NCBI GenBank assembly: GCA_951812955.1
Contig: OX638340.1
Span: 2,144,001 to 2,208,000 of the forward strand
Reading direction: 5' to 3'
Origin: an uncultured Gemmatimonadota bacterium
GTDB lineage: Bacteria > JAAXHH01
Length of the DNA: 64,000 bases
The position numbers and the translations under genes were made by a program. Shown here piece by piece: positions 29,187 through 29,609 of this stretch; the first letter of the stretch is position 1; every line of letters begins with the position of its first letter. The notes under the pieces were generated by a model that worked only from the letters and a program-made list of their open reading frames with translations, had not been told where the DNA came from and did not search any database.

Positions 29187-29462
29187 CTATCCCACCGTAA
29201 ACAGCAACTTTTTACCAATCGCCTTGGCGTATTTCCCAAGAGTAGACAAGCGGATGTCTTCCGCATGGTTCTCGATTCTGGAAATGGCAGACTTCCTGGT
29301 CTTCAACCTGCGCGCCACTTCTTCCTGGGTAAGACCGGCATCCTCTCTCGCCTGCCGAAGTAGTACACCGATCTTGAACTCCTGGTATCCCTCATCGTAT
29401 TTCTCGGCAAATTCTGCATCCTTGACCCTGCGATATGCCACGTACTCACTCAAGTCGCTCAT
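29187..29462 (-). CDS. XRE-family HTH antitoxin (HigA-like)
   Basis: 91 aa; HTH LTQEEVARRLKTRKSAISRIENHAEDIRLSTL. Its ATG (29460-29462) overlaps the TGA of the toxin remnant in an ATGA arrangement. Confidence 0.65.
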   Translation of the reverse strand: MSDLSEYVAYRRVKDAEFAEKYDEGYQEFKIGVLLRQAREDAGLTQEEVARRLKTRKSAISRIENHAEDIRLSTLGKYAKAIGKKLLFTVG

Positions 29463-29593
29463 CGGCTATTCCTCATGAAATAATCCTGTCTTCTCTTCTC
29501 GGCAAGTCGGATGTCCGATCTCGGTGTTTTCCGGGTCTTCTTTGCGAAAGCATGATCTGTGTGAACCATGCACAACAAATTTATAGCCCTGAA
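29459..29593 (-). pseudogene. Truncated HigB/RelE (Gp49-like) toxin: only the C-terminal ~36-44 codons remain
   Basis: Manual translation gives (LL)CMVHTDHAFAKKTRKTPRSDIRLAEKRRQDYFMRNSR*, matching the C-terminus of HigB-family killer proteins (...NHAFQKKTQKTPKQAIKLAEQRKKDYF). The frame is closed by TAA at 29594-29596, 13 nt from the stop of the neighbouring gene. Confidence 0.55.
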
Positions 29594-29609
29594 TTAATCG
29601 CCTGCCCGA

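Follow-up and report, generated by a model that had tools for sequence, protein, structure and literature searches.

What has become of the toxin in a higBA-like module of which only the antitoxin gene is whole, and why is the antitoxin gene still there? The question is raised by positions 29,187 to 29,609 of a 64,000-nucleotide stretch of DNA, here called the window, from an uncultured Gemmatimonadota bacterium. The locus is very probably an eroding chromosomal type II toxin-antitoxin (TA) islet, in which a 268-nt deletion took most of the toxin gene and the orphan higA survives the decay. Toxin-first erosion of chromosomal TA modules has already been published and this locus is an ordinary case of it; taken alone it matters little, as one more eroded TA module.

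Eroded type II TA systems have been described in Photorhabdus, where decay proceeds in two steps, with inactivation of the toxin first, mostly by truncation (Belot et al., Mol Biol Evol 2026, PMC13617665). The present site is similar to those in that small TA-only islets lie between core genes, the toxin is broken, the antitoxin is whole and some lineages have lost the module completely. It differs from them in belonging to another phylum, in being known from metagenomic data and in showing at least five types of lesion at one site, one of them the exchange of the toxin for an NYN-domain gene. Populations of Klebsiella pneumoniae contain abundant orphan antitoxins (PMC7192599), and an anti-addiction role has been put forward for ccdO157 (Saavedra De Bast 2008, as cited in PMC13617665 and PMC2654758). 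By analogy, the same roles may be proposed here, namely immunity to incoming homologues or regulation. Unlike in the anti-addiction examples, the native promoter and operator are also damaged in the window.

The module itself can be compared with HigBA from S. pneumoniae (PDB codes 6AF3 and 6AF4), which pairs a Gp49-type HigB with an XRE-type helix-turn-helix (HTH) HigA and for which the active-site and HigA-contacting residues have been described (PMC7984235). The two systems share the toxin-first gene order and an HTH antitoxin, which in S. pneumoniae represses its own operon, and they share the HxFxK(K/R)TxKTP motif, which is present in the intact toxin of the relatives and survives in the stub. 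Unlike S. pneumoniae HigBA, the window keeps only the 32 C-terminal codons of the toxin gene.

The antitoxin gene

The higA gene is intact and occupies 29187..29462 on the minus strand, including the stop codon; it encodes an XRE-type HTH antitoxin of 91 residues, as assigned from the list of open reading frames and from Pfam. The DNA-binding HTH domain expected of a higBA-like antitoxin was detected in HigA by profile search, with an E-value of 3.5e-12 for HTH_3 and with HTH_31 and HTH_19 also past their cut-offs. In a further difference from the S. pneumoniae protein, the similarity of this HigA to solved HigA and HipB proteins is weak, the PDB matches being the HTH antitoxins HipB and HigA2. 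No Rfam match was found over 24500-30500.

The genes follow each other on the same strand, toxin then antitoxin, with overlapping stop and start codons. As the preliminary description of this DNA had stated, the antitoxin ORF is whole and its ATG (29462..29460) overlaps the TGA of the toxin stub (29461..29459) as ATGA (29462..29459); the same overlap is present in most of the 57 intact homologous modules. A Shine-Dalgarno-like GAGGA, read off the sequence at 29470..29474 (minus strand), lies 7 nt ahead of the higA ATG within the final toxin codons and is conserved across the syntenic loci. Directly past the higA stop, a pattern scan identified a terminator-like hairpin with a T-run (29167..29181, minus strand). 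With a whole antitoxin ORF and no working cognate toxin in cis, the gene is an orphan, and the suggested annotation is that of an orphan HTH antitoxin for higA and of a pseudogene fragment for the stub.

The toxin stub

The stub is the 3' remnant of higB, a gene for a Gp49-family toxin, and comprises codons 85-116 and the TGA (29459..29557, minus strand); it was identified through Pfam Gp49 and through its match to the C-terminus of the toxin from locus L004. The match to Pfam Gp49 (PF05973) covers profile positions 68-89 of 90 only (E-value 3.3e-5), and the score of 24.3 bits is just above the family cut-off of 23.9 bits. The earlier identification of the stub as the C-terminal end of a Gp49/HigB toxin is in line with this match. 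NCBIfam gave no match for either the toxin or the stub, and PADLOC gave generic HTH matches and a partial NsnC match only.

The reading frame of the stub is open from 29593 down to 29462, which corresponds to 44 codons, and translation shows it closed upstream by a TAA (29594..29596, minus strand) situated 13 nt past the TAG (29612..29610) of the neighbouring CBM9-like gene, just as previously described. The surviving part of the toxin had been put at 36 to 44 codons. That it is a C-terminal remnant holds, and the count does not, since only 32 of the 116 codons are left: the toxin-derived part is D85-R116 (29557..29462), which is identical to the last 32 residues of the intact 116-residue L004 toxin, and the remaining 12 of the 44 codons (FRAINLLCMVHT) come from the former promoter region.

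The preliminary description had also proposed a tblastn search with a full-length toxin. Run with an intact relative toxin against the 64-kb window, it returned residues 81-116 only, at 29569..29462 and with 91.7% identity, the alignment reaching four residues beyond D85 into the junction sequence; it revealed no full-length toxin and no further copy of the Gp49 toxin in the window. The three minus-strand frames upstream of the stub were all translated and contain no toxin, just the 3' end of the CBM9-like gene.

The complete Gp49/RelE-like toxin fold with its active-site residues is absent from the window and present in the syntenic relatives. Four of the six putative active-site positions of S. 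pneumoniae HigB (D61, E66, R68 and R73) have their equivalents in the deleted part, and the equivalents of F90 and K92 (F88 and K90) are the sole such positions left in the stub. The HigA-contacting residues of S. pneumoniae HigB (F17, M20, D40 and L44) also map to the deleted part, and the stub has neither the beta-sheet core nor the N-terminal HigA-binding helices. Judging from what is left, the production of a toxin from the stub is impossible, and by analogy with the S. pneumoniae pair its binding to HigA is unlikely.

The ancestral pair and the deletion

The syntenic relatives come from a look-up of the exact HigA protein, of which the best 10 of the 13 contigs examined, all from metagenome assemblies, are listed here. 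All ten have the gene order GDSL lipase, MGMT, CBM9-like gene, cassette and convergent metH, and their flanks are 93-97% identical to the window. The proteins related to those of the window carry the label Gemmatimonadota bacterium, and the exact CBM9 protein of the window has no database record. The intact ancestral pair that had been expected in such relatives is indeed there: in L001, L002, L004, L007 and L008 an identical HigA is accompanied by a full 116-residue Gp49 toxin between the same neighbours. A 116-residue toxin ORF is present in seven of the nine listed contigs with a readable toxin slot, and two of these seven (L006 and L010) carry the substitution K90N. The intact toxin covers positions 1-89 of the 90 positions of Pfam Gp49 (E-value 1.2e-19) and aligns with S. 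pneumoniae HigB (PDB code 6af3) over residues 1-109 (E-value 1.2e-7).

Aligned with the intact syntenic arrangement, the window is short of exactly 268 nt: the CBM9 stop and the higA ATG are 147 nt apart, as opposed to 415 nt in the intact loci. The alignment places the junction at 29558..29559, where CACA[TA...266 nt...]TAGATC has been reduced to a single TA copy. The ancestral sequence reads ...GGTTCACA[TA TTTGTTAACTTCGGGT ATG ... codons 1-83 ... G]TA GAT CAT..., of which the bracketed part was lost. The loss thus consists of one TA copy and the 266 nt between two TA copies, and the TA-to-TA distance in L004 and L008 is 268 nt. The missing part runs from the second operator half-site, with the -10 element and the transcription start, through the start codon to codon 84 of the toxin gene. 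The breakpoints share just the TA, and no longer direct repeats or DNA secondary structure joining them were found.

The same junction is present in L091, an independent 2.25-Mb contig from another sample, which is collinear with the window and 95.9% identical to it over 6.3 kb. In L091 the junction is unmodified and reads CACATAGATC, while that of the window reads CACACAGATC, the TA being now CA through a later T>C change at 29559. With the identical junction in this independent contig, the sequence comparison presents the 268-nt deletion as real. A search for the deletion junction and for the 5' end of higA in the JGI metagenomes gave 0 matches each, which indicates that the lineage is absent from that collection.

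It is highly improbable that the toxin is frameshifted or misassembled rather than deleted, or that the stub ORF (36 codons from the ATG at 29569) is a functional small protein. The frames upstream of the stub hold the CBM9 3' end only, the 268 nt are physically absent in comparison with at least eight syntenic loci, and the same junction occurs in the independent assembly L091; the earlier view of a deletion and not a frameshift agrees with all of this. In-frame start codons, an ATG (29569..29567) and a TTG (29578..29576), do lie upstream of the stub, but the ATG is not conserved, being GCG in L091, it has no ribosome-binding site ahead, and the product would be without the fold core and the HigA-binding helices (PMC7984235).

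The deletion is found in identical form on two haplotypes, at 29558-29559 of the window and at L091:2904-2905. L091 shares 99.5% identity with the full-toxin locus L008, and the window is about 4% away from every sampled haplotype. In a three-way comparison of site patterns, L091 follows L008 as far as position -9 on one side of the junction and +82 on the other, and no patch resembling the window is seen. Import of the deletion by recombination was considered and rejected, since no donor-like patch flanks the junction. As far as these site patterns can tell, the shared deletion would either have arisen twice or have been carried over by conversion of a tract of less than about 90 nt. Simple random decay does not account for its presence on two haplotypes.

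Promoter, operator and expression of higA

The control region of the module was defined by aligning 90-nt stretches ahead of the toxin gene from about 70 homologous modules, including L011-L090 and L004, L008, L092 and L101. About 66 of the 70 loci, from many phyla, share the motif CTTGACA-N3/4-GTTAAC-N6-GTTAAC-AT, placed 6-10 nt ahead of the toxin start. It can be read as a -35 hexamer followed by two palindromic half-sites 12 bp apart, with a -10-like TAACAT over the second half-site, and this arrangement implies a putative HigA operator located on the core promoter together with a leaderless or nearly leaderless toxin mRNA. The version found in the clade of the window is TTGTGC-ATG-GTTCAC-ATATTT-GTTAAC-TT. 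The operator emerged only from the comparison of the approximately 70 upstream regions, and no inverted repeats of at least 8 nt were found in the control region.

The left breakpoint of the deletion lies right after GTTCACA, between the two operator half-sites. By alignment with L004, the window retains the 5' part of the former higBA control region (29560..29609, minus strand), which contains the -35-like TTGTGC (29575..29570) and the half-site GTTCAC (29566..29561). It has lost the half-site GTTAAC and the -10 element TAACTT along with the start codon and the start of transcription, so that the autoregulated promoter with a palindromic operator typical of such modules is lacking and the predicted operator is halved. 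The antitoxin or regulator had been described as retained; this is true of its ORF and not of its native regulatory region, where the -10 element and the second half-site are missing.

No sigma-70 consensus promoter was detected by a promoter scan of 29100-29750, and the pattern GTTNAC-N6-GTTNAC, which might mark new targets of HigA, was not found elsewhere in the 64-kb window. The CBM9-like gene (29610..30263, minus strand; Pfam CBM9_1, E-value 2e-6) ends 147 nt before higA and, now that the -10 element of the module has been deleted, is the only candidate source of read-through transcription. A pattern scan found no minus-strand terminator-like site between this gene and higA, which makes read-through the most plausible source of remaining expression; any residual expression of higA would most likely come about in this way.

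Decay of the toxin in relatives

The toxin gene is damaged in a number of independent ways at the same site in relatives. In L099 a 372-nt deletion has left 12 toxin codons and brought higA to 43 nt past the CBM9 stop. In L092-L095, four assemblies that include NCBI GCA_028875375.1, toxin codon 11 carries a TCC>TAG nonsense mutation. An identical 1-nt frameshift in the toxin is found in two samples (L100 and L103), and the single-base toxin frameshifts in L003, L005 and L102 are possibly assembly errors. The K90N substitution (AAG>AAT) of L006 and L010 affects the equivalent of K92 of S. pneumoniae HigB within the conserved HAFAKKT motif, and may be a missense route to attenuation of the toxin.

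In L096-98 and L108-110 the whole toxin has been swapped for a cassette with a gene for a 210-residue NYN-domain protein, and the sequences become homologous again from about 13 nt ahead of the higA ATG. This NYN-domain (PF01936) gene, at L096:2319-2951, L110:2318-2950 and L108:2319-2951 in sister lineages, lies 49 nt upstream of higA, and L108 has an additional ORF of 73 residues (L108:2036-2257). The NYN-domain gene evolves under purifying selection (omega 0.08) and, with a dS of 0.34 versus 0.81 for higA, is younger than higA. It could be either an unrelated insertion or a new partner of HigA.

The lesions at this site all end before higA and its ribosome-binding site, and higA is whole at every locus that still holds the cassette, with the sampling caveat that these loci were found through intact HigA. 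Of the 76 species genomes that have a HigA homologue (60-77% identity) and could be assessed, the toxin is intact in 57, broken or truncated in about 13 and missing in 6; in one of these loci, L083, residues 71-114 of the toxin are all that is left, an independent parallel to the stub of the window. The site therefore offers a clean natural series of intact, missense, nonsense, frameshifted, partly or fully deleted and replaced toxins, as well as empty sites. The series illustrates the published toxin-first decay model and could serve in asking if selection acts on orphan antitoxins.

Selection on higA and the survival of the orphan

The omega of higA is 0.02-0.12 in every between-lineage comparison, including pairs in which both loci are toxin-less: L096 versus L108 (dS 0.81, omega 0.10), L108 versus L110 (dS 1.23, omega 0.05) and L092 versus L099 (omega 0.08). 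The loci compared were collected through the exact intact HigA, so that broken higA alleles are invisible among them, and look-ups with the CBM9 protein returned empty sites only. In the HTH codons 28-91, 4-6 nonsynonymous as opposed to 28-29 synonymous changes separate distant lineages. The N-terminal 27 codons evolve fast, and by analogy with S. pneumoniae HigA the corresponding residues are probably the toxin-binding part. The dS of higA (0.81) is close to that of the flanking CBM9 gene (0.80), indicating that higA has long been present at the site. In the group to which the window belongs, higA shows 0 nonsynonymous versus 1-5 synonymous differences, save for Q27H in L091, and the omega of the toxin is 0.2-0.58. 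The higA of the window differs by 1-4 synonymous changes from alleles located beside intact toxins, and being nearly unchanged relative to these haplotypes it indicates that the deletion in the window is too recent for a test of selection.

The module, with its Gp49/HigB-family toxin gene ahead of the XRE-HTH HigA gene, sits where the CBM9-like gene and metH converge with their 3' ends. The 268-nt deletion between two TA dinucleotides disabled the toxin and stripped the core promoter, and higA kept its full ORF and its own ribosome-binding site, minus the autoregulated promoter. The toxin lost first and the antitoxin spared is the order expected from addiction logic: a cell can lose the toxin without harm, but not the labile antitoxin as long as stable toxin is present, so that the toxin is hit and the antitoxin is spared. 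The orphan higA is most simply a survivor of this decay, and it is not necessarily kept for a new role.

How active the survivor may be is a question on which other readings differ. It is conceivable, and somewhat unlikely, that higA is a silent fossil, untranscribed after the loss of the -10 element, the start and half of the operator, and intact only because too little time has passed. The deletion of the conserved -10/operator core, the lack of a consensus promoter in the remaining region and the near-identity of the window higA to alleles beside intact toxins are all consistent with such a fossil. The upstream CBM9-like gene, on the same strand and with no terminator-like site in between, argues against it, as does the terminator-like hairpin past higA, which makes read-through plausible; moreover, the higA of L099 is intact 43 nt past the CBM9 stop without a promoter of its own. 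At the other extreme, strong purifying selection on the HTH part of HigA could mean that selection, and not chance, has preserved the orphan, either for trans immunity against incoming Gp49 toxins (anti-addiction) or as a domesticated transcription factor. This is unlikely, although several observations favour it: the low omega of higA even between toxin-less loci, its near lack of amino-acid change in the group of the window next to the higher omega of the toxin, its age at the site as judged from the CBM9 dS, and the sparing of higA and its ribosome-binding site by every lesion. The module family is in addition widespread and mobile across phyla, so homologous toxins probably arrive.

Against selection for such a role, sampling is biased toward intact HigA, as look-ups based on CBM9 gave only empty sites, and much of the higA divergence may be older than the loss of the toxin, as the dS values of 0.34 for the NYN cassette and 0.81 for higA illustrate. 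The deletion in the window is too recent to be informative (1-4 synonymous changes), the operator and the -10 element are deleted with no other GTTNAC-N6-GTTNAC in 64 kb, and addiction logic suffices to explain why higA was spared. Quite unlikely is the further-reaching reading in which the toxin is repeatedly purged in this clade and HigA is actively kept as a stand-alone immunity factor or regulator, in some lineages maybe re-partnered with the NYN-domain RNase-like gene into a new pair resembling a TA module. Its grounds are the toxin lesions of at least five types, the occurrence of the 268-nt deletion on two haplotypes, the omega of about 0.05 in the HTH part and the fast evolution of the N-terminal 27 residues.

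The cassette site and its surroundings

The site occupied by the eroding islet can be recognized from its composition and from relatives in which it is empty. The GC content over the remnant is 46-51%, as opposed to 60-66% in the flanks. In the empty sites L111:3143-3154 and L112:3143-3154 there is no higB or higA, and the two flanking genes, CBM9-like and metH, run into each other tail to tail over 12 nt. L111, whose empty site was found through CBM9 homologues, is sister to the group of the window, and in a more distant relative, too, the CBM9-like gene and metH are direct neighbours. The low GC content and the empty sites together indicate that the module is a TA-only islet of about 750 bp, inserted between two core genes and polymorphic for presence and absence. 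Its right edge is marked by the 3' end of the convergent metH (29100..29151, plus strand), whose product ends in ..DSPARY* here and in ..LPA* in the empty sites L111 and L112. A target-site duplication at the ends of the cassette was also considered and was dropped, since the right boundary varies between lineages.

Some further features were observed in the neighbourhood. The called length of metH among the relatives ranges from 1212 to 1297 residues. At 25292-25391 of the window, just upstream of the metH frame or in its 5' end, lies a tandem array of 4.1 copies of a 24-nt unit (ACCGTGGCGCAGCGACGCGAGGCA), which encodes SDARQPWR repeats in the longest ORF. In L002 (11724-12137) a gene for a HicB-like antitoxin adjoins an aminotransferase gene, an arrangement not seen there in the other loci. 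A stretch of L001 with a MacB/FtsX-type permease gene matches the window twice, at 20092-20628 and at 22593-23125, with 79% and 97% identity, which suggests the presence of paralogous permease genes a few kb apart in the window.
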